Assembly (NCBI GenBank): GCA_054600435.1
Contig: BAAIJX010000079.1
Span: 47,568-67,567 of the forward strand
DNA: 20,000 nucleotides
Direction of reading: 5' to 3'
Origin: Neophaeotheca triangularis
Taxonomy: Eukaryota
The notes under the pieces were generated by a model that searched no databases, was not told where the DNA came from, and worked only from the letters and a program-made list of their open reading frames with translations. Shown here piece by piece: positions 1-20,000 of this stretch. The translations under genes were made by a program, and so were the position numbers. Within the stretch, counting starts at the first letter, position 1. The number at the start of each line of letters is the position of its first letter.

Positions 1-738
1 CTACAAGGTAATTATGTCTCGTCGATTAACGACCTTAGAGATGAGCTTCTTCTACCTTCTATTAAAGAAGGTCGTGCTATTATACTAGTAGATAAGCCTA
101 AGTTAGAGCTAGAGTAGGAGCCGGTAGATAAACTAGACTAGGAGCTACCGGAGTAGGAGCTAGTAATAAATAACATAGAGCTAATAGAGTAGGAGTAGTT
201 ACCCTAGAAGCGTGCCCCTACGACAGTCCGTACCCCGTTAGTTACGCCGCCTATAACTCCTACTTATTCGTTAACACCGAGTAGGGGTTAGGCCGTTTAG
301 ACGACTAAGAAGAAGGTTACTACTATAGAGGTTGTCGCTAATTCAGCCTCTTAGATAGTAGAAGGGTTTACATGCCTTAGCTAGTAGTTTGTAGAGCTCA
401 AGGTGCCCCCTACTACTAAGGTAATAACGCGGTTAAAGGCCTTACCTTACTTCTAAGCCTTAAGTCTTACCTACCGAGTTATGGCCTTCCATATTATCGT
501 AAACGAGACCGTAGCTACTACCTTCTTACCCCCTATTACTAAAGAGGAGATAGTCGAAATGCTCTATACCGAGTTTATAGAGCGTAGTGTATAGTTGCCG
601 TAGGAGGAGTCTATTAGTAAGGCCGTAATAGGAGTAGTTAAAGGTAGTATAGAAGAAGAAGAAGGTCGAGTAATAGGGGAAGAAGGTGTGTTTAGTGTTA
701 GCGAGGTTAAGGGCTTTACTACCTTAGGCATACATTAA
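1..738 (+). pseudogene. C-terminal part of a RIP-degraded ORF, probably the second (Myb/SANT-like) gene of the PIF/Harbinger element; begins before the window
   Basis: Frame +1 reads as a protein (LQGNYVSSINDLRDELL...acidic/Pro-Thr linker...AFHIIVNETVATTFL...) interrupted only by TAA/TAG, ending TAA 736-738. It is convergent with the Harbinger transposase. The Myb/SANT domain itself is not in the window, so the identity is inferred from Harbinger two-gene architecture. Confidence 0.5.
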
Positions 739-841
739 AGAAGCAGTAAGATATAGCTATGACTATCTACTATACTAATAAAACATGAGCTAAGGCGATA
801 GACGAGACTACATCCTTATACCTCTATAAAATTTAAGCTAG

Positions 842-1639
842 TTACATAACCTTAGACATCCCTTAGACTTCATCCCCTTTAGACATACCTTCGTACGGTA
901 TACTCCTAGTAATAACTAGCCCTAGTACAAGAGGCCTCTTTATATGTCGACAATACTAGCGCCACATCCTCTAAGCAATACGGTCACGCCGCGTAGTGAC
1001 AATAGGGCTCTTATAAGCACTAGAGGGCCGTCTAGTATAGCTGTATTCGTCGGTATTAAGGGTTAGGGGCGGTACCTCCTTATGCGCCGGTTAGCTATAC
1101 GAGTTTATGAAGTTATGAAGGCTATAGAGCGTATACACTAGCATTACCTACACCTTAATCGAATACCCTTGCCTAGGGCTATGTTTTAAGATCTCAAAAC
1201 GAGCCTTAAGTACACTAAATACCCTCTTAACGATGTTCTAGAGCTGTACATGGCGTAGGTTAAATAGTTCCTCTAGAGTCTCTAGTTTTACTTACGACTT
1301 ATACTACTCCTTAAGGTGATACCGCATCTTCAAGTAGGGTGTCAAGAGCGTCTTGTCTATAGCTATATACCCTACATCTACGAGCTAGTATGCCCTCTTA
1401 GGTATCTCAAACCCCTTCATCTTAGCTATATTTAGTACGGTACCGTCGTTCGTAGAGCCCTCCTACCCTAGTAAGACATATACAAAGTTCATGTCAAAAT
1501 CTACTACTACTAGCATGTTCTACGATATGAACCCCTTCTAGTTATGCTATAGACCTTACATATTAGCTAGTATTGCGGCTAGGATGTACGAGCCATTAAG
1601 AGTACTAACATACCCTCGAAAGAACGGCTAGAGCTTCTT
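842..1639 (-). pseudogene. PIF/Harbinger (HARBI1-like, DDE_Tnp_4) transposase, C-terminal catalytic part, RIP-inactivated
   Basis: Minus translation shows PFFRGYVSTLNGSYI (de-RIP GCVGALDGSHI), DFDMNFVYVLLG*EGSTNDG, LVDVGY, TPYLKMRYHLKE*, ELFNLRHVQL*NIVKRVFSVLKARF, LHNF and RDRIA*RMW, which are the hallmark Harbinger motifs. The 3' end is approximate. Confidence 0.9.
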
Positions 1640-1800
1640 TGACACAGTACGACAGTATGGGTCAGTATGTATGGTGTATAAAAGATAGGATAGACTCTCT
1701 ATCTACAGCTAAAGCTAGAAGTACACACTATACATACTCTCTCCCCCTCTAGGTAGGAAGCTATAAGCCACACCCACACTAGATAACTCCTGCCATAACA
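1640..1800 (-). repeat. 3' LTR (161 bp)
   Basis: TGACACAG...CCATAACA; 147/161 identical to 13838-13998 with no indels. Confidence 0.97.
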
Positions 1801-1860
1801 GGTAGGGGGCTCCTCATGCTTACTATGTCCTCATTAAGCCAAGACCGTCATGGTCCGTAG

Positions 1861-2110
1861 GAACCGAGTCGGTCAGTTTAAACCGAGTCGGTCGGTCTAA
1901 ACTGAGGGGGCTTGCCGAAACCGAGTGGGTTTGCCGAAACCGAGTTGGTTACGTCAAACCGAGTGGTTTTGTTCGAACCGAGTCGGTTAGTAGGCATCTA
2001 GATAGAGTAAAACCGTGCGTGGGGTCCAAACCGTGTCCGCGGCTTCAAACCGCGCTAGTAGGTTCAAACCGCGCTAGCAAGTTCAAACCGCGCTAGTAGG
2101 TCAATCCGTA
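1861..2110 (+). repeat. Subterminal tandem array, ~13 units, mostly 19-bp period, core (A)AACCG
   Basis: AACCG-like cores at 1862, 1881, 1900 (AACTG), 1919, 1938, 1957, 1976, then 2011, 2029, 2048, 2067, 2086, ~2104. Confidence 0.9.
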
Positions 2111-2243
2111 GTAGTAGGTTCGCAGCTCGTGGTCTAAGGCCGACGGAGTTAGGGAAGAGTATTAGCGTGTCACGCTACTAGGATGAGAAATTAGTGGACC
2201 GCGATTCTATTCGATGTGTAACTAAGGAAATATCTCGAACTAC

Positions 2244-2480
2244 GGGTAGGCAAAAGCCTTCGCTGGATGGAAATCGCTTGTGGGTAGGCGAAAGCCTTCG
2301 CTAGATAGAAATTGCTTGCAAGTAGGCGAAAGCCTTCGCCTAGTGACGCTAAGTTTCGGACGCGGGCTCCGGAAACTGAAGGCAGGTGAACACCTTCGCC
2401 TTAATCGCTATATCGGCAGGCAAAAGCCTTCGCCTAGGGAGAAACGCTAAGCTTAGAGGCAGGTAAAAACCTTCGCCTAG
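2244..2480 (-). repeat. Six copies of a hairpin-like motif (plus strand GGYAGGY-N4-RCCTTCGC)
   Basis: AGGY starts at 2248, 2286, 2324, 2384, 2418, 2461; the first three are spaced exactly 38 bp apart. Confidence 0.85.
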
Positions 2481-2661
2481 TAGACTAGAGGGAGAAACAA
2501 CGTAGGACAGAGGAGCGCGCATCGCGGTTATACGGCTAGGCCGAAGTCTACAGCTACCTTGTTAATTTTTTAGGTCAGTGTTGTCTCACTATATCCCGCG
2601 CTGACGCGCCGTAGTTTATATAGTCTTCGGACCGTGGCACTCCTAAGGAGTAAGGAGCGCA

Positions 2662-5601
2662 TCATGCTCTAAAGTACGGCAGCTAGTAGCGTGCGCGCCT
2701 AGCTAACCTAGTCTCTATAGGAGGAGAGGCCTTCTAGCGGCGCACTAAAGGTGTCTAGGCCATAGCCTAAGGGCCTACGTCGTCTTCGGTAAGGTCTATG
2801 AATTCGACCTTCTTGGCGCTAGACAGAGGTACTTTCCCGGGAAAATGGAGGAGGACGGGAAGGGTTTCGGCTACGTCGCGGACAGTCTAGGAGATGCCGG
2901 AGGTATCGATTGTGACGGCGTCGAGCGCCTAGGCTTCTAGCCATTGTTTCTAGCTCTTTATCGTCTCCTACTCACCTTCCTACGGGCTAGGATCTTCGTA
3001 GATAGTGATGTCTCCCAAAATCATCCCTTTGTCCTATACGTCTTGTATTGCTTACATCCTCGCTCTTTGAACTTCCGCCGCCATGATAGCTATAGACTCG
3101 GAAGCTACCTTGACTAAGTCGTATTCCTTATGGGCCACCGCTATTAAGTTCATGGCCCTAGTGCGGACACCGTAGTCTACGCTGTTCATGTCCGACTTTA
3201 TACTGTCGTAGTTAGTCTCCGCGTCCTAGAAGGTGCTAAGGGCGTTGATTCGCGCCTCGTAGAAGGCGAAAGCCTTCTAGTTGTACTCGCCTTAGAACTA
3301 GCTAGTACGGTACTAATCAATCTAACGCGCGGGGGAGGTCGGTTGTGAATGGCTCTATACGCCGGAGGCGCGGCGGAACGGGTTATTGCGGAGAGATAGG
3401 CTAGTAGGTGTGCGGTTAAACGGGTCGTTCATGGCGCTCGTATTAAGCGATAGGAAACGCTGTCCGCTACGCGAGCTATACGCTAGTTGTCTACCGCTAG
3501 AGGTAGGCTGCAACTACGCCTACTAGTTACCCGATGTGCGAGGGTATTGGCCGGCTAGGGTAGCTTTTAGGTACTTATCTTTACGCCCCGAGAGGCCGCT
3601 AGACATTAGCGGAAGTTAGGCGCCTAGGACATAACTACTATCGGCTAGGGTTCGCGCTTGGCCGGAGTATTAGGTTAGGTAATGGCCGCAGCGGTCCGGG
3701 GTAGCTGCTCCGTCGCTAGTGACGCGGTAGAGGTGGGGAGGAATCTAGAAACCGGCTTCTGACAACGTGGCCTAGTCGTTACCCGCTGCTGTCGTCGGCG
3801 AGGTGGAAGTGGACGGCAATCCCATGTAGCGGAGGGGTATAGGTGGCGGGAACGCCGCCATTCTTGCCATGGGTAGCTCTATGTCGGTATAGCGTTCCGC
3901 CGTGTCATCTAGTAGGATATTTCTCTATCCCTAGACTAGGGGCGGGGTGCGTAGAGTGGCGTTTCGTCCCTCTAACTAACTGTTGACAGTCACGTCGGTC
4001 ATTAAGCGGTCGGGATGGCTACGGGGTAGCGATACTTGGTTGTCCATGAACTCGCGGTAGGCTAGAGAGATCCTATCCACATCGATAACCGTTAGCCAGC
4101 GTATTACTGTCTAGTCTACCTCGAGGTACTCCTCGTACTAGAACTTTTTGGCGCGGGCTTACCTCTACGTATAGTACGTGGACGGTTTAGTAGCGAGCGT
4201 GGGACGCTGCTATAGGAAGCTGCGCGGTAGGTTCGAGACTGTCGTCATCAGGTCTTTTTCTAGATCTCTAAGTGTCGTCAGGTAGTTGTATAGGTACCCG
4301 CTGCCGTAAAGCGTGTAGCATCCGTAGATGCACGCATACTACTACTTCCTACTTATGTTTAACTAGAGGATGCCCGGGCGTCCCCTAGGGCGGCGGTTTA
4401 GTACTAGCTCGCCGCGAGCAGTAAAGGTCTCGGGCTAGTTACGGTACAAGATCTCGCTAGTCAGGAGAGAACGCTCCGATATAAGCATGAGCTCGAGCAC
4501 GTCGCAATCTTCTAGCGCCGCATAGGTTAGTGGTAAGCTGTCGATGTCGAAACGGGAGTAGAAAGCGTAGTAGTAGTATAAGCCGGTGGTTTCGCCTAGG
4601 TTGAGCTCATGGCTAGGGTCACGTGTCATGCCGATGCTCTCGGGGCGCTCCGGTAGCGTATACATTTAGTAGAAGTCGTAGGGAACCTTAGGGTTTCCGT
4701 ACCACACAAAGTACGGGTTTGGTTACGCGCCTCCCATGTTAGCGAGGCAGTAAGTGATAAGGGGCTAGGGGCAAATCGTATAGAGTACCGCAAGACCGAC
4801 CGCGCGGAGGACGAGTTCGAAGGCGCCGTCTTGCTTAAGGGTTTAGACGGACGAGTGTTCTCCCGCGGTCAGGAGTCGGACGGCCGCTACGACTATGTTG
4901 TTAAAAACACCGTTCGGTGTAAGGCTTTCGAGTGTTTCCTAGGGATGTAGTACTCCTAACGAGGTAGTTACGAGCTCATAGGCGTTGTCGATGAGCGCGA
5001 CGTCTTGCGCCTTATTGCTATTACGTTAAGTAACTAGTCGAAAGATAGAAGTAAACAGTGGATCGGCCTACTAGTAAACGGTAACGCAATTAGTAAGCGA
5101 TTTGAAGGGTCGGAGCGAAGCTAGCTAGTAGGAGGCGTACTACTATAGACGGAAAGGGAGGTCGGTTTCGTGTAGCGCGAGTAGCTAAATTGTTCGAAGG
5201 TTGAGAGCGAGGTCTAAGAATGAAGGCGCTGCCGCCTTAAGGTCACAGAAAGTGTTATAGTATTCGGGAGTGTTAGGAAGGGTTATATCTACGCTTAGTC
5301 TTTCAAAAGCGACCTAGAGCTAACTGTCGCCCTCTCGGTAGCGGCGCGCGGCTTCTTCTACTGTCTCGTTAGGATTAAGCGCGCCCTATTAGATAAGTTC
5401 CTAGCGAGTGTTGTAACCGGGAAGATTTGTGAAAGGTGACGCCTGAGTTAGGGCCTAACGACGGATACGTAAGGCTTTCTTAGCCGGAGTCTAGGTTATG
5501 TCTACTACCGTGCCGGTAGGGACGCTGGGTTTGAATACCCGCGGCGTGAAAGTAGCGCGGCGGGGGTATAGAGGTAAGGTATACCTGTTTAGCGCCGGTA
5601 T
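2662..5601 (-). pseudogene. Extra ~980-codon ORF of unknown function inside the retrotransposon, downstream of pol, RIP-inactivated
   Basis: One frame from a putative RIPed ATG (ATA at 5601) to TGA at 2662-2664. It contains about 55 internal stops, all TAA/TAG, no frameshift, and protein-like composition throughout. It includes the called 76-aa ORF 4435-4665. Confidence 0.8.
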
Positions 5602-5830
5602 CGATGTTACAAACCGAAACGCTTTAGAAGGTAGTTGTGAAGAAGGTAGGGCTAGAGACGGTTAGGATGTTAGTTAAGTCGGTTGTTATAAGTTGAAAGG
5701 TAGGAGTTATGGTTAGGAAAAGGTGTCGAGGTAAGTGTTGTTGTTAGTATTGTTATGAAGCTAGCTAGCGCGTAAGCGAGCGGAAACGCGGCGCCAAGCC
5801 GCGGTTACGACGTCACCCCTAACGATGGCG
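5602..5830 (-). promoter_or_regulatory. Putative internal promoter/5' UTR of the extra ORF
   Basis: GC-rich block with TGACGTCG (CRE-like, ~5808-5815) and ACGCG motifs, followed on the minus strand by a C/T/A-rich leader typical of fungal core promoters and 5' UTRs. Confidence 0.35.
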
Positions 5831-5875
5831 TCGGTATCGATAAGGTGATAGTGATAAGGAGGTGTACACGACACC

Positions 5876-8800
5876 TTAGGCCTGTCTATAGAAGGCTAGT
5901 GTGGCAGACCTCGTCTACCTCCTGACTTCCCTACTAGTACAGATAGGGCGAGTCGGTATCACTAGGATTAGTACGCGGTTTGCCGTGGATGCTTGCTACT
6001 ATTCTTCTCTAGTTTCAGTGTCGGTGGGGGCGGCGCTCTTAGCCGCCGCTACTAGGGCAGGATTAGTTATTAGGGTATTAGGCTTCCTACCCTTAACCCT
6101 AAGGTCTCCCTCCGTACCGGGGTACAGCTCGTCATATTGGGCGACCATTTCTCGTGCGTCTAGTAGGTCGTCGATGTCGTACCATACGTTATGAGCTGGC
6201 CCCTAGCCGAGCCACTAGACAAGGTACTGTCTAATGTCTTTCCCCTATTGCTTTCTCGTTCTACGTGCTAGTAGCCTCTTAATCTCGTATACTCCGACTC
6301 CGTCTTCATCTAGGTATACGGGCCTAGGCTCGCCGGGTTCCTAGCTGTAAGGGTCTAAGCTAGTTAGCGCCGGTTCGAGCTATATAACGGACACGACGGG
6401 GTGTATTTTCCAGTGCGGTAGGAGTTCTAGCTCGTAAGCCAGCTTCCCGACGACCTTAGAGATCTTGAAAGGGCCATATCGCTAGGCCGCTAGTTTCTTT
6501 AGGATAAAACCAGGTATTAAGTAACCACGCTAGAGGCGGAGTAGGATGTTTTGACCCTTTTTGAACCGGATTAGACGGTAGGCTTAGTCGTATCTGTCCT
6601 TTATGGCTACTACTACCATCGAGAGAGCGTCTATTGCTTAATCGCGGGCTACCTGTCGTAGGGCGACGTAGTCTGCGACCGGAAGCTTAATTAGAGGGTC
6701 TAAGGCATCAAGGTTAGATTTGAAACCCTAGATGAGGATGTTCGGCACTTATGCCGTCGATACGTTCACGGCGTTGTTTATCGACGATTGTATGTGCGTT
6801 AGGGCTACTACCTAGGGGGTATCCGGGTTGCCGTAGACGAAGAACCGGAGTGCGATCTCGATAGTCTAATTAGTGCGCTCCGACTGCCCGTCGGTCTACG
6901 GGTAGTAAGTAGTGGAGGCAAGGAAGCGAGTGTTTAACTTGGCAAACACTCCCTTCTAGAAAGCGGAAAGCCACAAGGGGTCCCGGTCACCGATAAGCAT
7001 ATAGGGGATATTCCACTCCGCGCTACGGAGAGCTTCTAGCCATACCGCCGCCCATTCCGGTACGTTCTAGTCGTTCCGCCCCTTGACCAGCAAGATTTTT
7101 TTGGAAAAACGGTCTGTGACCGTGAGCATTACGTCAAAGCCATCTGGCGTTAGAGGAAGCCCCGTTACCTAGTCGGCTGTCTAGGTATAGTAGGGGATCA
7201 GCTTGACTTGAGTAGGTTGTAGTTCGCCGAGCGGCTTAGATCGGAGAGTTTAGCACACCATGTAGTCGGGGCAATACGCGATGTAGCGCTAGAGCTTGTC
7301 TACTAGTCGGCGGATGTAAAAACTAGCCTATATGCGGGAGTAAGTCCGGAAGAAGCCTACGTGATAGTAGTTATCATGTGCCATGCGGAAAATTTCTTGG
7401 AACAAGGGCTTAGGGATGTAAAGTCGTTCGCGGCTATCTTCCTCGTCGCGGAAATAGATCAACCGGTCTCGTAGAAAGAAGCGCAGTCTAAGGGGACTAG
7501 ACTCTAGTTCGCCGGCAACATCCTCTAAGCTGCCCGCCTAGCCGTCGCTTTACGTAGTGGCGTTGTCTAAGGTAGTACGGGCTTCGCACTACTCTAGCTA
7601 CTAGAGTCGCGGCTGCTAGAAAGTGTCGTTTACGTAGCCGGTTCGAATCTCCTCTTTGAAACCGTCGTCTATTACGACTAGGGTGGTATGGAACACTACC
7701 GTTATCTATTCCTCGGCGAAATTGTTGTAGTAGGCGGCCATACTGCTATCGAAATAGTTCTCGTCGGCAGCCTAATTGGCCTCCTCGTAGCCAAGAGGGT
7801 CGAGGGTATCGGTATCTGGTTCCTTTGTTGTAGTGGCTCTATCGCCTAGTAGACGGCTAAGGGCGTCTAGGACTAGGTGGATTCGTCCCGGGCGGTACCT
7901 AACGTCGAGGTCGAACTAGCTAAGGTACTACGCTACCCGGACTAGGCGGAGGTTCAACTTATTAGTTGAAGTAGTCGTGGTAAGGCTAGAGTGGCTTGCT
8001 AATGCCGCGACGGCGGAGTGATCCGTGAAGACCACCGTTGATTTTGTGAACGCCTAGATCATATGGCGGGCTTTTCGTAATAGCTATACCATGCCGGCCA
8101 TTTCGAGCTCCGTGGGCTAGTAATTCTTTTCGGCCGTCGTAAGAGCTTTACTGAGGAATGCTACTAGTTAGATGTCGTGACGGGGGAAATGCAATGCTTT
8201 TCCCCTGTTCATTACAGGTTCTAGGTCCCCTGCCACTATATAGACCACTACTCTAAAGCCGAATTCCTTTGATGCATCGACATCGGTATATAGCTGACAG
8301 GTAGGGTCGATGTAATATAGGAACGGTGTGTCGCGGAAAATGCCCTGTAGTACCGCGAAGGCGCGGTAGGCTGCTTCCCAAATTGAATCGTCTAGGGAAA
8401 CCGGCGTCTTCTCTAAAAACCGTTTACGCGCTCCGCCTTTAAGCGGGCTGTCCTTAAGGAGGGCCGTCTTTAGCATTTGCAATAGCTACACGATCTAGGC
8501 GTAGTAGGGCACGCATTGCCGTAGCTAGCTAGTGAGTCTAAGGTACTTTTCTAGGTCTTTGAGCGTTCGGGGAAACTAGAGGTCGACAATAGCCTTAACC
8601 TTGTCGTCATGGGTAGCTAGGCCGAGCCCGCTAACCTACTAGCCTAGGAGGGTTATGGAGGGGAAACCTAGGAAGGTCTTCGCTAGGCTTAGACTGACTT
8701 TAACGGTGTTAAGGCGGCTAAACACCTATGCTAGGTAGTCTAGGTGTTCTTCTAGGGAGTGTAAGAACACCACGATATCGTCGATGTACGTATGGTAGAA

Positions 8801-11800
8801 AGGTCTTAGGTCGCGGAGAAGGTTGTCTAACTCTCTCTATACATAGGCGATCGAGTTCTTAAAACCCATTACCGCTACCTTAAAGACCTCTTGACCGCGA
8901 TAGGAGTTCACCGCCAACTTGTGACGGTCTTAGGCCGCTACTAACCATTAGTAGAAAAAACTGACTGCGTCTATAGTGGATATGAATTAGCAGCCGCGCG
9001 TTACCTATAGTAGGTCCTCTTGTAGGGGAAGGGGGTAGCTGTCCTTCTAGGTAACTTTGTTTAGCCCGCGGATGTCGACTACTACTCGGCCTTTTCGAAC
9101 CGGCAGCCCGTCCTTAATAACTGTTTTCTAGACAACGAAAACTAGGGAGGCAAAACGGGTGTGCTCGGTGCTCCACTCCATCTTGCCTTATACATAGAGC
9201 GGATCGAGCGTGTTGTCGACGACTTTTCGATCTACTACGCTGAGTGGGAAACCCTTTAAAGAAAGCTTGGCGGATTCCTAACCGTCACGAAGGGGTATCG
9301 GCATATGGCGCTACTCGGGAATGTCCACGTAGCGACCTTTGTCGATGAAAAGCTCCGGGAAGGACTACACTAATTTCTCTAGTGCGGTTACTTGGTCTTA
9401 CGCTCCGTACACGGTAACGCCGTTTAACAGGACGGTCTACTCTACCCGGGGCACTTCCTTATAGAAGGCTGTCTTTAATGGGAGGGCGGCGAGACAGTGA
9501 CTGTCTAGTTCGACATGGTAACTGCCTTCTTCTACCCATTCCGAGACACGACTGAGTGTTAATCCCTCGTGGACGGACACGGCTAGTGAGGTGTCATTGC
9601 GAACCATTACGAAGCTGCACTAGGCATCTATAGCATAGTTGTAGCTAGTGAGGCCGGCTGGCAAATTAGGCGACGGTGTAAACTAGGAGTCTCTGTTTCG
9701 TGGTAGGAGTGGGAATGTGGCTTCGACCCTTAGTAACGAGTTTGGTAGGACCTGGCATTGTTTCGCTACTATAACTGATCTAGCGGTACGCATTCTGTCC
9801 CGCTGTTTAACTAGGAGCGGGGCCTACGCTCCAGTATAGGTACCTAAGGTGACTAACTTCCTCGGGATGTCGATCTTCATGCGCTATAGAGATATGATAT
9901 CCATGGCTAAAAGCATGAGCGGTTTGAGGTCCCGCATAACGTGCACCTCATGTCTCATTTCGTAGAGGACTCTCTATCCACTAGAAGCCGCGGGAATCTA
10001 GAAAGTAAGCAAAACATGTTCGCGGACCTCCCTTAACGAAGGGCCCACTCCTCGCACTCGAAACGGTAATTTAGACTTGATACGAGATATGGTAGGGAGC
10101 TGCGATAAGAGGAAATGTTCGTCGATGATAGATACTACCGCGCTAGTATCGAGGCAGACGGGGGTGTCTATATTTTGCTGCTAGAAACAGACAGGTATTC
10201 TAAGGTAATGGAAATTTCGAAATGCGTATCCCTCGTATACGGCACCTAGGGCCTACGACTTGACCATGGGTAGGCTCTTAGTCGGATCAGTAATTGTCTG
10301 CCCTAGGGCTTTGCCGGCTAGTCAGGCAGGATCGCTATACTCGGCTCGCAGGTAGCGATACAGTGCGTTTTTAGTGCCGAACTTAGTTTTGTAGTGCTAG
10401 CATCGTTGCTTTACTGGCCTCGGGGACGCTACGATAAGCGGTCGTAGCGCCTACTCGGTTATTAGTGTAATGGATACGACGCTACGGAGTGTAGGGCTGT
10501 GCTAGGGGAGCACCTTATTGACATATGTATCGAAAACGTCGTCCTCGGGAGCATAAAGATCATCGCTATTAGTGCCGTAGGCGATTAGGTCTACGAAGTT
10601 GTTCTTAAACTCGGCGAGGACATCCTCGCCTTCTAACTACATTTCTTCACCCTCGTCATCTATAAAGTTGTTAGAAGGGCGCGAGTCTTGGCGATTCTAG
10701 CTTTAGCGGTTTTGATTGCGCCAGGTTGCCGCTAGTTATTACTAGGCTAGTGTGTTGCGCCCCGCCTAGCCATCTCGTGGTGGCGCCGTATCTAAGCGGC
10801 GTTTAGCCGAAACGGACGCGTTTCTAAATGGTAGCGCTTAGGGCGTCTAAGTTAGCCTTTCGCTTAGGCGGGCGCTACTAGGAAGAAACGGCTGGCGTTG
10901 TGCTAGAGCCTATTAGGGGGGATTAGTCTGTAGGCGGAAACCGTTATTGTTGTTTCGTCTAGAACGGCAGTTGTTGAAGCCGCGGTCCTAGATGCTGTCA
11001 AATCGCTTACTAGACTCGGCTAGCTGAACTATCGGACGATTTAGGTAAAGGTCAGTCTAGGTGTCGAAACAGTCCTCTATTTAACGGATGAGGCTCTCTT
11101 AGGTTGTTCTTCTATTAGGCTTAGGGATGTTTTGGCGAAGGGGGGCCTCAATTTTGAGCTAACATTAGGAGAGGCGAGCTGTAAGGCTATCAATTTTGGC
11201 CTCCTACGCCTATCGAGTACAACTAAGAACGAATTCGGAGGGGGCGCGGCCACTACGCACGTCGTTACGTGTATAGGCCTCCCGGTTAAGGTTACTCATG
11301 GCAGTTATGACTAAGACTCGGAATTTATTGCGTAGGGCTTTTTCCCATCTCTTGATGCTAGAACTACCCCGGAGGTGCCGTCGCTCCGACTTAGTTAGCT
11401 ACGACATGAGCTAAATAGAAGCTCCTCCGCGAAGGCACTTCCCTAGGTGTTTATGCGTTTCGGACGACGAATTCACTTCGGCGTAGTCTCTAGTAGATTC
11501 CAAGAAGAAATGCACTGATCGATAGTACTACTTGTTCTAGGCTATAACCTAGTCTCTAGCTAGTGCCTTAGCCGTGCTAAGGTAGGGGTCAAAGTACCTA
11601 ACCTCCTCCGCTTTAAAGGGGGCATGTTTAGATCGAGAGCGAGAGCCGCTACGTTAGGGGCTGTCGACTCGGTCGCCGGAGTCTTCGCGATAGCGGCAGT
11701 ACCCGCTCCCACGGGAGCGGCGATTACGGCAGTTACGCCTACGGCTTCGGGATAGGCTGTTAGACGAGGATGATCCCGAGCTTAGGCTAGAGCTACTACT

Positions 11801-13315
11801 CGGGTCTTAACGCCGGTGGTAGCGAGTGCTATAGCGGCGTGGCTCGCGGTGGTGACTACGTCCACGAGGCTCGGCTAGAGGTTAAGCGTCGGCTAGGTGT
11901 TCGTTTGGCTCCTACGCCTAGAGGTTACCTCTACGAAGCCGCTCGGAGCGCGAGTAGTAGCTATCTAGGCGGCTGACAATACGAGAGCCGAAATTCGACT
12001 CGACTAAGGGCATGGCGTAGGCATGTTCGTTATAGAGATAGCGGTCGATTACGCTAGGAGCACTTACGGGGCCCGAGGGCTAGTTAGCTAGTAGGATGTC
12101 GTTTTGCGTAGGACTAGTAGCTACACTCTATCGGTTCTCTTCGTTACGGGACTCTTTACGGGCGGCAATTAAGTCGCGAATCTCGTTGAAACGAGCTTCG
12201 ACGTACGCCTCGTTACGTTCTTAGACTTGCTGTATCGATTCCTATAAGAGACCTCGGATCGCGTCGAGAGTTAGCACTTAGGCCTATTACTAGGGCGGTC
12301 GCTAGGCCGGCTGTTATAGGGGCGGTTACGCCGGCTACTGTAGCGGCTACTGCGGCGGCTACTACTACGGCTACTCGGGGTAAGGGGGGGCTACTAAGCG
12401 GTTTCGCTATACGCGCCTAGGCTAGTCGGGTTCCCCGTGTACGTCGGCCATAGTAGCTAGCTGCGTTAGGGGTAATAGGGGGTAGGAGGTAAGTTGTTCG
12501 AAACGGTGTGGGATATAGCGGAAACTCATGACAGACGCTTAAGTCGAGGGGGAAGACAGGCGTAGGCTAACTTCGACAGCTGAGTCTGTATTACTAAGAC
12601 GGGCTAGTTGTATTAGATCGAAGAGAGGCGGCTCGTTAGGCTAGGCGGGGTTGTCACTTATTGTAGTGCTAAGCGGGGACGAAGAGGGTAGGGGGACTTA
12701 GGGTGGAGTCGTAGGGGTAGTGGGTAAGGGGATCTACGGGGGGGATAGTTAGGTCTAGGGGGTAGGTAGAGGGATCTAAGGAGGAGACAGGGCGGGCAAG
12801 GTAGCTCGGGTAATAGGAGGGAGCTAGCGGTTCTACGACGGGCGTATCGTGCGGGGAGCGAATGTGGCCGCTAGTATGTCGGCTAGCGTAGATCTCTCGT
12901 GCCCAAATTGGAGGCGTAGGTAGTGCCGGATCCGTTCGTACTAAGCTAGGAAAGTCTTTACTGTAGCGGTAATGAGGGTCTTGTCGACGGACCACTACTC
13001 TAGGAAACCGAATTCCCCTTAGGGGGCTCCTCTAGGGTATACGGCGGTGACCTTCTTAGTAGCTTAGTGTAGCGTCTTGTAGCGGTTCTTCAATGCTTTC
13101 GACCGTGTAGGATTAGTGTAGAAGCAAAAGAGTTAATGAGCTTCCTTAATGTTGTCGGCACTTAACTAGGGTAAGGGTAAGGAAGCCACGGTTACGAAAG
13201 GGAAAGACGGCTTAGAGCTTGTTTACTATGTGAGGCGTAGCTGCCGAATCGGACAATGGTTATATCTAGGCGGTTTATCGCGATTTGAGTAAAGGGCGGC
13301 AGAAAAGGGTGTTAT
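5876..13315 (-). pseudogene. gag-pol: Gag-Pol polyprotein in a single reading frame (gag, C2H2 finger, aspartic protease, RT, RNase H, integrase, chromodomain), RIP-inactivated; start codon uncertain (RIPed ATA candidates at 13315 and 12661)
   Basis: All motifs fall in the same frame: gag FKAEEV(G)YFDP...CLRGGASI(W) ~11420-11620; protease VCLDT(G)A ~10140-10159; RT KGRVVVDIRGLN, DAVSFFY, YIDD at 8777-8788; RNase H LYTDVDASKEFGF and YWPTELEMAG-like; integrase H-H-C-C ~7250-7385, D(W)VTGLP, DRDP, P(Q)TDGQSERTN; GPF motif ~6470. Confidence 0.93.
6133..6289 (-). other. Chromodomain at integrase C-terminus
   Basis: YEIKRLLARR...QYLV*WLG*GPAHNVWYDIDDL...MVAQY follows the GPF motif, matching the chromodomain pattern YxVxWxG...xW. 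Confidence 0.88.
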
Positions 13316-13583
13316 GAGCGTAGCTCGGAGGGGCGAGAGGTTAGGGTCGCTAGCCTCGTGTAGTACCGGGCTATAAGGCGCCTAGGCGCGTATAGAGATG
13401 CTTGCGATCTTCTTAGACGCTTGTCTACTCTCTACTGTTTCGATGTCACCCTCGATAGCTCTTTTTCCACTCGGCTCTATACCGAGCTCTCGACTCTACT
13501 ACTAAGGCCTAGTTCTAATTGCTTTAGTCAGCGTCGGTCCGGGCTAGCATAGGTCACTTAGGACGGGTAAGGTCGCCGGGAGC

Positions 13584-13785
13584 TAGTCGGTTCGTGCTGA
13601 CGTAATCGGTTTAAGCTAACGGAGACGGTTTAGAGTAAGCGAGTCGGTTTAGACCAATGAAGTCGGTTTGACCGAAGCGAGTCGGTTTGAGCTAATGGAG
13701 TCGGTTTAAGCAGGTCTAGTCGGTTTAAACTAGCGGAGTCGGTTTGGGCGGGTCGAGTCGGTTTGAAACGGCGGAGTCGGTTTGA
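13584..13785 (-). repeat. Subterminal tandem array, 11 units with strict 19-bp period, core GAGTCGGTTT (plus strand)
   Basis: CGGTT at 13588, 13607, 13626, 13645, 13664, 13683, 13702, 13721, 13740, 13759, 13778. Confidence 0.93.
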
Positions 13786-13826
13786 AGAAACTGTCTAGGG
13801 ATGATCTTGATAGATCTTGACCTTCT

Positions 13827-13835
13827 CAGCTACTA
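13827..13835 (-). promoter_or_regulatory. Putative primer-binding site (tRNA-iMet-like)
   Basis: Two nt after the 5' LTR the minus strand reads TAGTAGCTG. Reversing one RIP change gives TGGTAGCTG, complementary to a ...CAGCUACCA tRNA 3' end, as I recall for filamentous-fungal initiator tRNA-Met. Confidence 0.5.
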
Positions 13836-13837
13836 CT

Positions 13838-13998
13838 TGACACAGTATGACAGTATGGGTTAGTATATGTGGTATGTGAAAGATAGGATAGACTCTCTAT
13901 CTACAGCTAAAGCTAGAAGTATACACTATACACACTCTCTCCCCCTCTAGGTAGGAAGCCACAAGCTACACCCACACCAGATAACTCCTACCATAACA
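13838..13998 (-). repeat. 5' LTR (161 bp)
   Basis: Direct repeat of 1640-1800, TG...CA ends, followed by TSD TTCTT. Confidence 0.97.
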
Positions 13999-14477
13999 TT
14001 CTTATTACTATAGATTTAGTGTAGAGTAGTAGTAGTTATAGGTAGTTAAGTCTTTACCTTATACCGTCGTATAAGAGTAAGCAATATTACTTTAATATAA
14101 CTATAGAGACTAGTAGGTAAGTGCTAGAATGTCCGCCGTAGACCCCTAAGACTTACTCCCCTAGTATATATATCTAAAAAGATCACTACCTTCTCTACCG
14201 CTTTAACTTAGTAACCGTCCTTAAGGCTATACTCGCTTACTAGCTTATCTACTAACTATATTAAGCTCTCTCTTATCATCCGGGTAACCTCCTTATACCT
14301 CTAGTCATTATTTAGTACTAACTAGGTCTCCTTTACCCCCTTACTAGGCTCTAAAACTAGAGTTTATTAAGGCCCTTATAGTATGTAGTACCGCATAAGG
14401 AAGGTTGTAAGCTCCTCTATGACCTTAATGTTAGCTTCTATCTAAGCGATGACGAGCTCGTCGAGCAGTCTGTTCAT
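13999..14477 (-). pseudogene. PIF/Harbinger transposase, N-terminal part
   Basis: ATG at 14477 (MNRLLDELVIA...). It continues ...LKDG..VKAVEKVVIFLDI...RGLRRTF*H...IYSNK and joins in frame across the TSD to KL*PFFRG at the left side. Confidence 0.82.
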
Positions 14478-14572
14478 AAGAGTAACGCGTATAGCAAAAG
14501 CAGTATAGGTTTATAAGAGTAACGCGTATAGTAAAGGCAGTATGGCAAAAGCAGTATGGCAAAAGCAGTATA
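14475..14572. repeat. Local tandem duplications upstream of the transposase (ATAAGAGTAACGCGTATAG x2; GGCAAAAGCAGTAT-like x4)
   Basis: Directly visible repeated strings. Confidence 0.75.
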
Positions 14573-14894
14573 GCTTGTAGTAGACGGAGCTATATACACT
14601 TTCTATAAAAACACGAACAAGACACGACAGGGTATGTACGAGCTATAGGCCATAGGACCATAGGGCTATAGGACTACGAAATACACCTCTAGGGGTGTAT
14701 TTTGTGGCTCCAAAAAAGACTACGGTCCTATAGCTCTTAGTGGCTCTAGAGCCATGGCGGAGCTACCATACTACTACGAACAGTCGGAGCTACCAGAACT
14801 AGGACCGCTAAGGTACCCCCAAGGTACCTCCAATTCACTAATTAGTAGCGAGCCGTGGTCATGGTCCTAGGACTACCGTGGTCCTAAACCCTAA

Positions 14895-14911
14895 CTGCGA
14901 ACAGGCCCTTA
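14895..14911 (-). repeat. Harbinger terminal inverted repeat (GGGCCTGTTCGCAG) and TTA TSD
   Basis: Resembles PIF/Tourist TIR consensus GGGCCYGTTYG. The partner TIR is outside the window. Confidence 0.65.
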
Positions 14912-15826
14912 GTACTAAGTTCCTAAGGAGGTGGACCTTGTACTTCTAGGTGGCGTCTTTTATCTAATTGGCTGAAGGTTGCTTGTAGGGTTAGAGTTGT
15001 AGTCTTGAGCCACTCTAACACTAACCCTATGGTGGACTAGTGACACCTTCTTTTTGACGACGGTAAGGTATTGATACTGACAGTATTGACTAGAGGTATT
15101 AGAATCGCTAAGACAGGTTAGGAAACACAGCTGAGTATTGGTGTGGAGTGATCAAACAACTCTTACCGCTAATTTACCTTATAAAGACATCGCGACTTGG
15201 GAAAACCAACTTGAGGCTCTCTCCCAAGCCCAGCTCATCCGTCGAGAGGCAGCGTCGGCGTATCAAATGACGACTCACAAGACAGACGTCCAAGAACACG
15301 ATACTTGTATACCTAATGAAGGACGCCAACGCATACGAGGGAAGACAACACGATTGTAAAGCACCCGCCGCCCCGTCCAGCCTTGCAGCACAAGATGATT
15401 CGCCACCCAACCTACCCAGGCAGTAAGGTAGCCGCCCGGATGCCTTTGCAGAAGCACTGCAGCAATCCTCAATCTATGCAATAATGTTAGCAGCCACCGA
15501 CCTTCGCTTGACGGACGCGCCGCCTGGCCTGCGGATGACCGGTGTAGCTCGAGCCCCTCACGCGGTCAGGACTCACAGGCTCGGCCTCCTCTTCTGCAAC
15601 CGGTGAACCAAGCTCCCCGAGCTCCATCAGTCGCGTAGCCGCTGCCACGCTGCTCCACGCGTGCCTGGGCATGTGAAGAAGCTGGTTATATGTCGACAGC
15701 CCCCGCTGTCCAGTGTCGTCTACTTGTCTTGTCGATGAGCTATCGTTTCTTTCACTTTCGCCCTACCGGTTCGCAGTGTTTACCACTGCTTACTCCTGTT
15801 TCTCGCTCCCTCTCGCAGCTGCAAGT

Positions 15827-18800
15827 ATGGCAGCCGAACATGGTATAGAGGACGACGCCCAAGTCGCATCAGCAAGCATAGCAGCCCAGCGTGGCATGGA
15901 GGACGACACCCAAGACTTAGATCTCGCACACAGTCTATCGTTCCAATCTTCCTCTTCAGTCTTCGCTGACATGGGCCAGATGTCTGGAGAAGCAACAGGG
16001 TCAGAAGACTGGAGGCGCTACACTTTCTTCGAGAACTTTGGTTGATCCAGGTTGACGACGATGGAGACGTCAAGGATAGAGAAATGCAATCATCTGAATG
16101 TGACAGCAAACACGCGGTGAGTACCGACAAGGGGAAGCGGAAACAGACAGAAGATGTCGGCAGTGGATTCTGCAAGCAAGAAGCAATACACACCCGCGAC
16201 AATGGATGTCATCGGAGCAATGCTACGGAATCGGAGGCGGACACATCCGCACATGATGAGCCAGACTACCCTCACAACAAGTACCCAGTGGGCTACGACT
16301 GTGAAACAATTGACGCTATTCGGATGTCTCTTGGTGAGGACTTTGAGTCAGACCCTTCACCACCCCTGGAGTTTGAAAAAGGCTGCCGGAACCCAAATTG
16401 CACCTACGAGCACTCATCGTTGAGCTGCAAGAGGTGTGCCAGGGTTCGCAAGTTTCCTGAGGAGGCTACCACGTTCAAGCTTGTGAAGTCCGATTGCCCA
16501 CACTTCCTCGCTGTCTCTTACTGCTGGCCCAAGCATCCGGATGAGACGCCAAAGTCGACGCCGCAGGAATATCAGTATAGAAAAGTTCTTCCTAATGGCG
16601 AAAGCAGGCTTTGGAATGATCACAAACCTCCCGACCATGTCGTAAGACGGGCAATCGCAGTGGCTCGAGCTTTCGATATCCGCCAGATATGGATTGACCA
16701 AGTTTGCCTATCTCAAGATGAAGACGACCGTGATCACCAGCTTTCCATTCAGGGAATTGACTTTGTGTATAGGCGTGCGTTCGCCTGCGTCGGACTGTTA
16801 GAGTCCGTCTTGGACGATCAAAGGCTTCTCGCCGCTTATTCTTGGTCATTTGGCTACGCCCGCCTTGAACGGCTTCCTCCAAACCTGGGCCAGGTTTCGG
16901 AAGATCTATTGCGCTTGTTGGACTTAATCAATCAGGATCCATTCAATCAGCGAGCGTGGATTTTGCAAGAGTGCATCTCCGGGGATGGACGCATGATCCT
17001 CGCCTTGCAGCTGGCTCCGGGCATCGATTTCCCACCACATCCCACCTATAGGCCGAACCTCCCTCAACCGATCCATTCGTCAATCTTGTTCGACCAAAAA
17101 GTCATCCGAGGCTTGGGAGGCCTTGTCGCACATATGTGCACCAGGCTAGACGCGCCTGATCGCCCGGCCAACGCCTATACTCTGAGCAACAGCTTCGACA
17201 GCATGTGGCCAAGCAAACCGAGTTACGAAGACTCGCATCAGGATTATCACGCCCAATCTGATGAAACGGGCTTAGGTGAGAGGTCTGTCCCTCGATGTAC
17301 CGCTGCGCTCGCTGTAACGTATATACGACGGCGAAAGAACCATTCAGTCAGCGATCGCTTGGCTATCATGGCCAACATTTGCGATTACGAGTTTCGACTG
17401 GACACCCGCAAAGTCAAAGACTTTAAATCCCTTGCCGTTGCCTATTTGACCCAGGCGCTCACGAACGGCGACTTCTCACTTTGCATACCCGAGCTCATCA
17501 ACACTGCAACTCAAGCCAACGGGATGAACCTACCGATCTCCAGGCTCGCTTCCATTTCCGAAGCAAGGCGCCACTGGGACTCACACTGGTGTCCACATCC
17601 AAACTCCTCTCTTCCGTTCACCGACTCGAGATACACGAGACCGAGATCTTTGCTAGCCATCAGAAACAGCATGAACTACTGGATACACGATACGGGGTTA
17701 CGCTGTCCTGCGACGATCTGGCAAGTCGAGGAAAAGATCGATCTCCGAAGCGTCCGTGACAGGTGGCTTTCAACATGGAATGACATGAAGTGTGTCGTAA
17801 TCGAGACACATAGAAGCCCACAAGAGGCGAATGGGTGGACTTATCTGGAGATGAATGAGATGGTTGAATGGGCACGTCAACATCAAACGGAGCTGACTCA
17901 TGATCTCATTGACATTCCCGACAGGTACAGGCCTTACATATCTTGTAAGGTTCCCTCGTCAATCGAAGAGGACGAACATGCCCGAGAACGGGCGCTCTGT
18001 AATCTTCTGATTGACATTCTGGGGACCATCGCTCGTCTCGGCTACTTCTCTCTGGCAGACAGCATTTGGATGTCAACACGAAAAGATGCGATGCCAAAAA
18101 TACCCGGGAAACCCGATGCCGATAATTTCGTTGACCTTCCAGACACTGTTTGGGAGCTGCTATACCTTCGGCTTGACTCGAAATCCGAGCATATATTCCA
18201 ATTTGACTGGAAGGACGCTGGCAGTTTCTATCAAGCCTGGATCATCGACAGGGTCATGTCAGAGGGCTACTTGTGGTATGGGGAGGCACAGGCCAGTACT
18301 TACGGCATGTGGTACGACAGGACGAAACACCAGCAGGGCGCGGCCGTCGCCGATACGACAGTCAGACCAGATCGATTGGCAGATAGCACCTTCATGGAAA
18401 GAGAGCGCGAGAAAGAGAGGTTGATGCAGATTTACAACGCAACTTCTCTACCCGGTGGAGACCTGCGGGACGATGATTTTGCCATGTCTTCCGCTACACG
18501 CACGACCAATGAGATGAAGACGGCAAACCACAAACGTGCAATGCGGAGGCATGACCTTAGGGGGCTTCTTGCAGCCTTCGACGTCGATGGTCCCACCACA
18601 ATTGCCATCCCTCTCGATGAGGAACTTGAGAGGCTGCCGCATCCGCCGGAGCGGACCATGAGCGTTTGCTGGAAGGTCGATCAGCTGGATACGCTCAAGC
18701 TCGATGCGGGCATCAGAGAAGATTTCGAAGCGACGGAAGAATATGGCCCTATCGCCAGGTTCAAGGTCACGGGCAAGGTGAGAGGTTGCTGGCCGCAGAT

Positions 18801-18837
18801 GGAATACGTTCCATGTGCAAGGTATGAATTCGAATAG
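15827..18837 (+). CDS. Heterokaryon-incompatibility (HET, PF06985-like) domain protein; 5' exon structure unresolved (main ORF 16042-18837, first in-frame ATG 16084)
   Basis: HET motifs FLAVSYCW, IWIDQVCLSQ, IDFVYRRA and NQRAWILQE, followed by SDRLAIMANICDY. Intact 931-aa ORF with no RIP signature. Probable upstream exon from ATG 15827. Confidence 0.9.
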
Positions 18838-19065
18838 TGTCCGAGCCGGGAGGGACCCTAATCGGCAACGTCGGGATGTAATGGGCTGAACAGACATTGA
18901 ACTAAATGATTTGAGCATTGCTTCCTGATGCGCCTTTGGGAATACGTCAAGCTAGTAATATATGGTCTTCTCGTCACACTTGAACAAACTACTTGCCACG
19001 GTAATGCCCAAATTCTTGCTATACTCTCTTCTCCAACCAAAATCGGCGAAAAAGCTTCTCATCCT

Positions 19066-20000
19066 ACTTAACCTGTACAACCTCTAGCGTCTTCTCGAAG
19101 ACCGTCCCCCAACCCACCTCAAGCAACCACGCCCGCCATCAACATAGCCACCTACCTCGACCCCAGCTACCCCTGGGTGCGTCCATCCCTTCCGTCGTCC
19201 CTCCCCATCCCAAACCCATCCTAACAACCCCGCTCTCCAAACAGTGCCACATAGCCTACCGCACCCTCTACCGCGCCATGGACCTCTACACTACCCAGCC
19301 ACCCACCCACTCAACCCCCTCGGCCTCGCCTCCACTACGCTCCGCAATTGGCACCCTTCCTTCCAATCCTCAGCCCGCCAACCCTCAAAAGAGAAAATGG
19401 TACCCCCAATGCTCGCGAGGGTTGCTAACAAAAAACCAGCCCGGAGCGTGTCGCAGCCGTTCGCTCGCGGCTGGAGCGTGTGGGCCGCAATCTGGGCATG
19501 GTTTTCGGTTTCGAGAACGGGGTGGTAGGCGATTGCGGCGATGCGTTGAGTTTGGCGCACGCGGTTCGCCGGGGTCCGGAACGGCAGAGAGAGGTGGTGG
19601 AAGCGCTCTTGGAGACTGTGTGTGGGAAGTAGGCGGGGAAGTGGGGGATACGGAGACTTGGGAGAGGGTAGGAGGGGCTGCTGGGATGGGGGGGAAGGTA
19701 TGTTTTGCGCTTGGGAGTGAGGTTGATGAGCTGGTTTGCAGGGCGAGGGGGAGGGACGTACGGGCTGTTCCTTCTTTATTTTTATTTTTGAGATTAACGG
19801 GGTTTGGGTCAAGGGTACGGGGCGGGGGGGGGGGGGGGGGGGGGGGGGGTGGGGTTTTGGGGGTTTTTGGGGGGGGTTTTGTCGGGGTTGGGGGGGGAGC
19901 GCGGGAGGAGGAGGCCGTGGGTTGTGAGCAGTTCGCGGAGGGAGTCGAGGTGGTGGGCGTCGACTGTTTTGAAGGGGATGGTGGGGTCGCTGGCTAGGCG
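19066..20000 (-). CDS. Probable 3' part of an uncharacterised, Pro-rich, intron-containing gene that begins beyond the window; exon structure unresolved
   Basis: Minus frame open from the window end (RLASDPTIPFKTVDAHHLDSLRELLTTHGLLLP, then poly-Pro). Candidate splice donors GTACGT (~19760) and GTTAGC (~19429). No recognisable domain. Confidence 0.35.
19820..19900 (+). repeat. Poly-G / G-rich low-complexity tract
   Basis: Run of ~25 G followed by GGGGTTTT-type repeats. Confidence 0.85.

Follow-up and report, generated by a model that had tools for sequence, protein, structure and literature searches.

A RIP-inactivated Gypsy chromovirus of Neophaeotheca triangularis with a third gene behind pol, probably element-borne and not an env

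The element and the frame behind pol

We analyzed a stretch of 20,000 nucleotides (nt) from Neophaeotheca triangularis (assembly GCA_054600435.1, contig BAAIJX010000079.1, positions 47,568–67,567 of the forward strand), which we call the window and whose own numbering is used throughout. It contains a long terminal repeat (LTR) retrotransposon of the Gypsy chromovirus type that has been heavily mutated by repeat-induced point mutation (RIP), and, between pol and the 3′ LTR of this element, a frame of 980 codons at 2662–5601 that we call ORF3, the third open reading frame (ORF). The element, its genes and its repeats are given as they lie on the minus strand. We put at roughly 0.8 the probability that ORF3 is a real, element-borne, non-env third gene of a RIP-inactivated chromovirus.

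The RIP signature is strong in this part of the window: over positions 1–15000, TpA/ApT runs from 1.72 to 2.92 and (CpA+TpG)/(ApC+GpT) from 0.31 to 0.69, and no ORF there exceeds 108 amino acids (aa). The same indices are normal over positions 15001–20000, at 0.45–1.07 and 1.01–1.39.

When one minus-strand frame is translated with its stops as X, Pfam recovers the domains of pol at E values of 1e-12 to 2e-6: RVT_1 at 9094–8642 (residues 1636–1786, the coordinates converted from residue numbers), RT_RNaseH at 8170–7913 (residues 1944–2029), Integrase_H2C2 at 7417–7265 (residues 2195–2245), SH3_Tf2-1 at 6499–6371 (residues 2501–2543) and Chromo at 6289–6128 (residues 2571–2624; E 2e-6, 28.1 bits against a cutoff of 25.1). 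The order of reverse transcriptase (RT), RNase H, integrase and terminal chromodomain identifies a Ty3/Gypsy chromovirus (Metaviridae). Position-composition scoring finds a coding signal upstream of RT as well, in the phase of pol, and stops in the pol frame stand at 6001–5996 (TAG TAG) and 5878–5876 (TAA).

The termini of the element are well defined. Its two LTRs, each of 161 bp and bounded by TG..CA, lie at 13838–13998 (5′) and 1640–1800 (3′); they are identical at 147 of 161 positions (blastn, 90% over 171 nt), and all 14 differences between them are transitions. Outside them stand two identical copies of TTCTT, at 1635–1639 and 13999–14003. Because this 5-bp target-site duplication is perfect and encloses TG..CA LTRs, we read the whole as a single insertion of 12,359 bp (1640–13998), and ORF3 arrived as part of that insertion. 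Other copies of the LTR, found on contigs of sequencing run X1 of the same organism (compared with window positions 1201–14400), depart from the window precisely at 1640 and 13998. Two nucleotides past the 5′ LTR lies a 14-mer that resembles a primer-binding site (PBS; 13822–13835).

ORF3 lies on the sense strand of the element, 275–400 nt past the pol-frame stops and 862 nt ahead of the 3′ LTR, in a phase other than that of pol; the spacer that separates it from pol (5602–5998) carries no coding signal in a composition scan. An earlier reading of the locus from sequence alone had pointed to a gap of about 4 kb that separates the end of pol from the 3′ LTR and to a minus-strand frame of about 980 codons in it, and both are borne out, with the LTR starting at 1800 and the frame running over exactly 980 codons, from 5601 to 2662, to a terminal TGA (2664–2662). 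The frame contains 46 TAG and 10 TAA codons, and its sole TGA is the last codon, so that all 56 internal stops are of the kind that RIP makes, as that reading had said. ORF finders are indeed blind to the gene, the longest ordinary ORF within the frame being a piece of 76 aa at 4435–4665. The start codon is now ATA (5601–5599), which is ATG after a RIP-type G-to-A change, and it aligns with the methionine starts of two homologues, P0003 and P0004, in the 10-sequence alignment described below. The original stop may instead have been the TAG at 2685–2683, and the gene may thus have had about 972–979 codons.

The number of stops proves nothing, because the ORF3 frame, with 57, resembles the other five frames (55, 57, 67, 71 and 74). 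RIP also converts TGA, a caveat of the sequence-only reading that proved justified. The coding tests were chosen as ones that RIP cannot fake. TGA triplets across the three minus-strand frames number 0, 12 and 8, the zero falling in the ORF3 frame (binomial P 0.0003), and the corresponding counts for the pol frame are 0, 9 and 10. Base use by codon position is periodic in ORF3 (chi-squared 97.7, P 8e-19), and its profile is that of pol, with G high in position 1 and low in position 2 and C high in position 3; both halves of ORF3 show the same phase. A position-specific matrix trained on pol scores the ORF3 frame at +49.9, against −233.6 and −163.5 for the other minus-strand phases, and 2000 shuffles give −116 ± 18 with a maximum of −51.7, which places the ORF3 frame 9 standard deviations above them. 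Among 18 sliding windows of 300 nt (5550–2701), 17 score best in the ORF3 phase and 14 are positive; the one off-phase and four non-positive windows fall at the ORF3 start or in a low-complexity linker, with a weak zone at 3900–3301. The same composition scoring flagged a transposase remnant in the flank before that remnant had been recognized, an unplanned positive control. No introns were found across the 980 codons.

A protein family, a sister copy and a second element

We translated ORF3 with X at its stops (P0001) and scanned 1.84 billion representative proteins with HMMER at E ≤ 0.001. Nine relatives were found, with E values from 1.5e-35 to 8e-4, one of them below 1e-30 and three below 1e-10. 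The best, P0002 (E 1.5e-35), is 35% identical over query residues 309–608. BLASTP aligns ORF3 with P0002 over residues 309–528 (E 3e-36), with P0003 over 185–435 (E 2e-22) and with P0004 over 185–519 (E 6e-17), and significant similarity to homologues by BLASTP and HMMER covers residues 185–530 (4012–5049). The most conserved core comprises residues 357–431 (4309–4533), and nine positions, P357, D365, F393, G397, R403, P409, Y422, Y429 and L431, are invariant in all ten sequences of the alignment of ORF3 with its nine homologues.

The homologues form nine clusters at 50% identity among the 1.84 billion proteins, with lengths from 103 to 1924 aa; five are fragments of 103–526 aa, and P0008 and P0010 have unrelated N-terminal extensions. 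Pfam assigns none of the nine to a family at E ≤ 0.01, and no consistent family emerges in the ten members at E values up to 10. Judged by these comparisons, the family is small, very divergent, fast-evolving and Pfam-less. The longest member, P0008 (1924 aa), carries at least three modules of about 60 residues upstream of the core, with conserved Trp and Leu positions, which suggests that the N-terminal regions of the family grow via internal duplication. Scans of viral_contigs with two alignments and of genome_contigs returned no relative, and the metagenome scan a sole one, contig L001. Word-index protein searches with whole P0001, with the alignment and with residues 1–215 of P0002, the last aimed at longer proteins, returned no relatives either; these blanks are uninformative, because the full HMMER scan did find relatives. 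In the literature searched, we found no account of the ORF3 protein family or of a characterized third gene in an ascomycete chromovirus.

P0002 is encoded on L001, a GC-rich, un-RIPped metagenome contig of 3404 nt, in a frame that is open from the first base to a stop at 2607, bar two in-frame stops at 316–318 and 733–735. L001 has no Met near the equivalent of the ORF3 start, and this copy may be decaying or may start elsewhere. A blastn comparison between the 20-kb window and all of L001 has as its single best match the pairing of L001 3097–3125 with window 13846–13817 (26/30, E 0.010); it consists of the last nine bases of the 5′ LTR, the 2-nt spacer and the PBS-like 14-mer, on the strand of the gene. 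One mismatch in this junction, a G where the window has A, follows the direction of RIP change in the window. The 12-mer core of the PBS, which on L001 likewise stands behind the LTR end, occurs once there and once in the window, and 3 of 200 shuffles of L001 match it with one mismatch allowed.

The order on L001 is thus ORF3, about 300 nt, an LTR of about 200 nt (its start approximate), then PBS and leader, with the LTR end about 500 nt past the stop. Such a layout may be an assembler's collapse of the two LTRs of a multi-copy element, or it may be a tandem or circular form; under either, an LTR end and a PBS stand behind ORF3, so that the L001 homologue, too, belongs to an LTR retroelement. 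The L001 copy of ORF3 therefore looks LTR-borne. Two further comparisons were set aside. A RIP-tolerant Smith–Waterman alignment of the L001 tail with the element ends scored 75 and 78 (shuffles, 43–44 ± 4–5), and it aligned only gappy GC-rich tandem repeats; the core motif of a 19-nt array of the element has one exact copy in the L001 leader, which is not significant, as 63 of 200 shuffles match it with one mismatch allowed.

A sister copy within the same genome bears on the origin of the stops. On contigs of run X1, it covers 2459–3007, 3016–3076, 3106–5929 and 6121–6354 in the same order and then passes into TTAGGG repeats at 6354, which marks it as a telomere-capped 3′ fragment of the element. 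It keeps the end of pol, the spacer, ORF3 and the downstream region together. Between the window (1201–14400) and this copy together with the other LTR copies, 459 of 578 differing places are transitions, about equal in both directions, as fits two independently RIPped copies. Among the 40 of 578 differences listed, 17 lie in ORF3, all at 3016–3076, and both stops within that segment are sense codons in the sister copy: TAA 3054–3052 is CAA, and TAG 3036–3034 is TGG. Among the 12 of 22 insertions and deletions listed, those in ORF3 are +6, −3 and one −1, and six of 1 nt fall in the flanking untranslated spacers.

Since the frame lacks internal TGA, has the composition of pol and has nine HMMER homologues, and since both checkable stops are sense in the sister copy, ORF3 is a genuine, intronless protein-coding gene killed by RIP. 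The sequence-only reading had called the frame a continuous protein; composition, TGA bias and homologues uphold this, whereas the stop count (57, against 55–74 elsewhere) does not speak for it.

Three observations on these contigs stand apart from that conclusion. The sister copy shows the element, truncated at the equivalent of window 6354, sitting right at the end of a chromosome. Summed contig word depth over 1201–6480 is about twice that over 6481–13520, a depth that is not a copy number. The codon positions of the 17 listed ORF3 differences (10 third, 5 first and 2 second) were not used, the sample being small and RIP being biased to C-rich third positions. Contigs of runs X2 and X3 of the same organism gave no match to the stretch.

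What the protein may do and how the gene came to the element

Members of the family share a layout of an N-terminal region, a conserved alpha/beta core of about 100–200 residues, a long S/T/P/Q linker that is disordered, a helix exceeding 60 residues and a Lys/Arg-rich tail. In ORF3 the linker occupies residues ~560–770 (3292–3924), with an S/T/P/Q/G fraction of 0.36–0.43 in 70-residue blocks and a weak coding score, and the matching part of P0002 is modeled with a predicted local distance difference test score (pLDDT) below 50. The C-terminal helical region that follows (residues ~776–945, 2767–3276, then the basic tail) has the strongest coding scores of ORF3 (+11.6 to +22.6) and is collinear with a long helix of P0002, residues 342–403, in a weak BLASTP match (E 0.12).

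Two AlphaFold2 models were built, one of whole P0002 from the 10-sequence alignment (mean pLDDT 57.8) and one of the core only. The first predicts a confident alpha/beta core, with mean pLDDT of 87–95 in 10-residue blocks over residues 41–130, and a single long helix at 342–403, the rest outside the core being disordered. The counterpart of the most conserved stretch of ORF3 (residues 357–431) has block means in that same range. In VIA-align the long helix gives generic coiled-coil matches (Z about 6), coronavirus HR1 cores being included among many unrelated helices.

The position of ORF3 is that of an env gene, and the sequence-only reading had judged a true env unlikely, a judgment that the wider family supports. 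The N-terminus of ORF3 is not hydrophobic, and the maximum 19-residue Kyte–Doolittle mean of the six long homologues lies between 0.79 and 1.35, that is, without any segment of transmembrane grade; the copy in the window reaches 1.73, at a place where the homologues have a polar segment. Pfam finds no envelope or fusion family in ORF3 or its homologues, and no envelope fold was matched by the core. With neither a signal peptide nor a transmembrane anchor, ORF3 is, on its predicted features, not an envelope protein. All six homologues that reach the C-terminus (P0002–P0005, P0008 and P0010) end in K/R clusters, and the copy in the window has an Arg-rich tail; the protein is probably nuclear.

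That ORF3 is an element-encoded gene, as first proposed from the sequence, agrees with its sense-strand position behind pol and ahead of the 3′ LTR, within a single unit that a target-site duplication encloses, and with homologues at E 1.5e-35 to 8e-4. Several points weigh against this reading or narrow it. Run X1 may be the source of the window itself and the sister copy belongs to the same genome, perhaps to the same assembly, so that it is not independent; it may also be a segmental duplicate, and it allows 2 of the 56 stops to be checked. No canonical polypurine tract was found beside the 3′ LTR, and gag and the aspartic protease gave no Pfam match on the RIP-damaged frames. L001 carries no pol, and the PBS that it has in common with the window reflects in part the same host primer tRNA. 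As to function, Pfam places ORF3 in no family at E values up to 1. The fold searches had been proposed together with the original reading, and they yielded a modeled alpha/beta core and no match to a known fold: Foldseek found none in PDB and BFVD at E ≤ 0.001, VIA-align against 48,161 chains gave a best Z of 2.4 for the core, and a PDB sequence-profile search gave no match (best E 0.085). The core-only model is itself weaker (block pLDDT 74–84, mean 61.7), and as it is middling, the statement that the core has no known fold is a weak one. Finally, each of the nine homologues is predicted as a stand-alone protein whose polypeptide lacks RT, integrase and chromo domains. DNA context is visible for one of them, P0002 on L001, with its LTR end and PBS behind the gene, and a host-gene origin keeps some of its probability.

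That the homologues stand alone also speaks for the main alternative, in which ORF3 is a passenger: a host gene of an uncharacterized fungal family, taken up by read-through, template switching or recombination and without a role in the life cycle of the element. The spread of homologue lengths and the unrelated N-terminal extensions of P0008 and P0010 are in keeping with it, the pol-like codon usage would be expected of any other gene of this genome, and in bdelloid rotifers LTR retrotransposons are described as capturing additional ORFs (PMC5408684). We nevertheless consider it unlikely. In both contexts that can be seen, the window and L001, the sense strand has ORF3 immediately ahead of an LTR; with the two proteins 35–36% identical, such an arrangement favors a long shared descent with the element over a single recent capture. 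Moreover, the gene has no introns over 980 codons, and the family is tiny and fast-evolving, with five of nine matches being fragments, as expected of decaying repeats.

Far less probable is a nested insertion, in which 5601–2662 would be a separate, unrecognized mobile element that entered the stretch behind pol and ahead of the 3′ LTR in matching orientation. In its favor, the length of 12.4 kb is unusual, non-coding spacers lie on either side of ORF3, and PMC3248453 mentions complex fungal LTR elements with additional domains that arise through multiple insertions. Against it, no terminal repeats, direct or inverted, and no second target duplication flank the segment, where there are only five weak inverted pairs (18–25 nt, 72–83%) and the direct repeats are tandem arrays. 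Six-frame searches of 2000–6200 found no Pfam family of a transposase, RT, other transposon or host gene; the sister copy has the same junction of pol end and ORF3, and the L001 gene likewise lies about 500 nt upstream of an LTR end. That there is no gene at all, the frame being a chance product of RIP-skewed composition with as many stops (57) as two other frames (55 and 57) and with TGA removed everywhere by RIP, we count as refuted by the HMMER match at E 1.5e-35 and eight more, by a coding score 9 standard deviations above shuffles and by the same frame standing open in un-RIPped L001.

If ORF3 is, as we favor, a gene of the element, its protein could be expressed through a transcript of the element, subgenomic or spliced, or through an internal promoter, as for extra ORFs behind pol elsewhere. 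It would then enter the nucleus through its basic tail, the long helix may pair with itself, and the protein could serve as an accessory factor in the nuclear steps of the element, candidates being chromatin targeting, escape from silencing and import of the integration complex across a fungal nuclear envelope that stays intact. A more tentative extension of this idea, which we regard as possible rather than probable, is that ORF3 marks a Pezizomycotina lineage of chromoviruses with a long-kept third gene, encoding a nuclear protein of new fold that the element needs or finds useful; were that so, the gene would be hidden in most genomes because RIP shreds it. Equally speculative is the thought that such an ORF3 might be a fungal counterpart of retroviral accessory genes, acting, for example, in passage of the nuclear envelope or in blunting genome defense.

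Repeats, surroundings and comparison with known systems

Beyond its genes, the element is rich in short repeats. An array of 19-nt tandem units occupies the 5′ leader after the PBS (13562–13802), and kindred 19-nt arrays, built around a palindromic core, lie close to the inner edge of the 3′ LTR (1843–2121). Owing to the palindrome, the arrays match one another in either orientation, and their symmetric placement beside both LTRs is uncommon among LTR elements. Behind ORF3, the 3′ untranslated region contains repeat units of 38 nt, every one of which can form a stem of 8 bp with a loop of 4 nt (2238–2481), for which RNA folding gives a z-score of −2.9, with 1 of 200 shuffles folding equally well. 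The stem-loop unit, spaced at 38 nt, is present in five or six copies there, and an extra one lies inside ORF3 at 3254–3284; its placement between ORF3 and the 3′ LTR recalls, by analogy, retroviral elements for RNA export or packaging. At the expected site of the polypurine tract, 1801–1815, the sense strand is pyrimidine-rich and includes a 9-mer that is identical at L001 2892–2900. This 9-mer sits at about the expected start of the 3′ LTR in L001 and abuts the LTR in the window, and neither sequence has a clean purine run.

The element had inserted into a RIP-damaged transposase remnant of the PIF/Harbinger type (about 1112–1543, minus strand; DDE_Tnp_4, E 7.9e-13). One contig of run X1 links 1574 to 14024, as if from another copy of the DNA transposon that lacks the Gypsy insertion. 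The RIP signature ends abruptly near 15000, and beyond the RIP zone lies an intact HET-domain (heterokaryon incompatibility) gene of 931 codons at 16042–18837. Farther on, GC skew shifts from −0.44 to +0.63 across two neighboring 500-nt windows in 19001–20000 (GC 58–63%), and long overlapping ORFs occur on both strands at 19278–19998.

This locus illustrates that RIP can hide a gene of 980 codons from ORF finders and that composition and profile searches can still recover it. It also provides a protein family that can be searched for, with motifs conserved in its core and a defined layout. If the family proves element-borne throughout, it could become a test case for the function of non-envelope accessory genes and a marker for one chromovirus lineage, and a set of fungal 'hypothetical proteins' would become transposon genes. 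If ORF3 is instead a captured host gene, it would give fungi a clean case of an LTR element transducing a gene.

Extra ORFs behind pol occur in Athila elements and errantiviruses, and retroviruses are thought to derive from LTR retrotransposons with genes beyond gag and pol. To our knowledge, extra genes of LTR retrotransposons in fungi are almost unstudied. ORF3 resembles the env genes of errantiviruses, Athila and retroviruses in being a third, sense-strand gene that follows pol and precedes the 3′ LTR, and in its predicted long helix. Unlike them, it has no signal peptide, transmembrane anchor or match to an envelope family or fold, and its basic tails point to the nucleus.

One fungal domain, DUF6590, showed a resemblance. 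A language-model search with the P0002 core placed it closest to Ascomycota clusters in which 17–73% of members carry DUF6590 (score 0.92, 184–189 of 256 features); the likeness ends there, as the hidden Markov model of DUF6590 (PF20233) matches none of the ten sequences even at E values up to 10, and the resemblance was not confirmed. The term DUF6590 does not occur in the papers searched, and the language-model search with P0005 gave no usable match.

Other Ty3/Gypsy and LTR elements offer parallels in layout. Plant Tat/Ogre elements likewise carry, next to gag-pol, a sizable extra ORF in which a coiled coil is frequent and whose origin and function 'remain enigmatic' in the words of PMC4408406; according to that paper, the Tat ORFs carry a plant mobile domain, whereas ORF3 belongs to no Pfam family and differs in kingdom and Gypsy clade. 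The LTR elements of bdelloid rotifers (PMC5408684) also have ORFs beyond gag and pol, common to several element types there, in animal hosts and with proteins that are, as far as one can judge, unrelated to ORF3.

Also close are fungal Ty3/Gypsy elements, some longer than 13 kb, that are drawn with an 'additional ORF of unknown function' besides gag and pol, as worded in the Figure 3 legend of Novikova, Smyshlyaev and Blinov (2010; PMC2864245). In the light of this legend, the premise of the sequence-only reading that fungal chromoviruses carry only gag and pol was too strong. Within the literature searched, as far as the texts extend, the legend is the sole mention of an additional ORF in fungal Gypsy elements; it gives words without sequence, position, family or analysis, and that ORF may or may not belong to the present family, whereas ORF3 is tied to a protein family, a domain layout and a second element. 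An LTR retrotransposon with an extra ORF is thus a known arrangement, and what is new here is the protein family, the evidence from two divergent instances that it moves with LTR elements, and the fact that it could be recovered despite heavy RIP.

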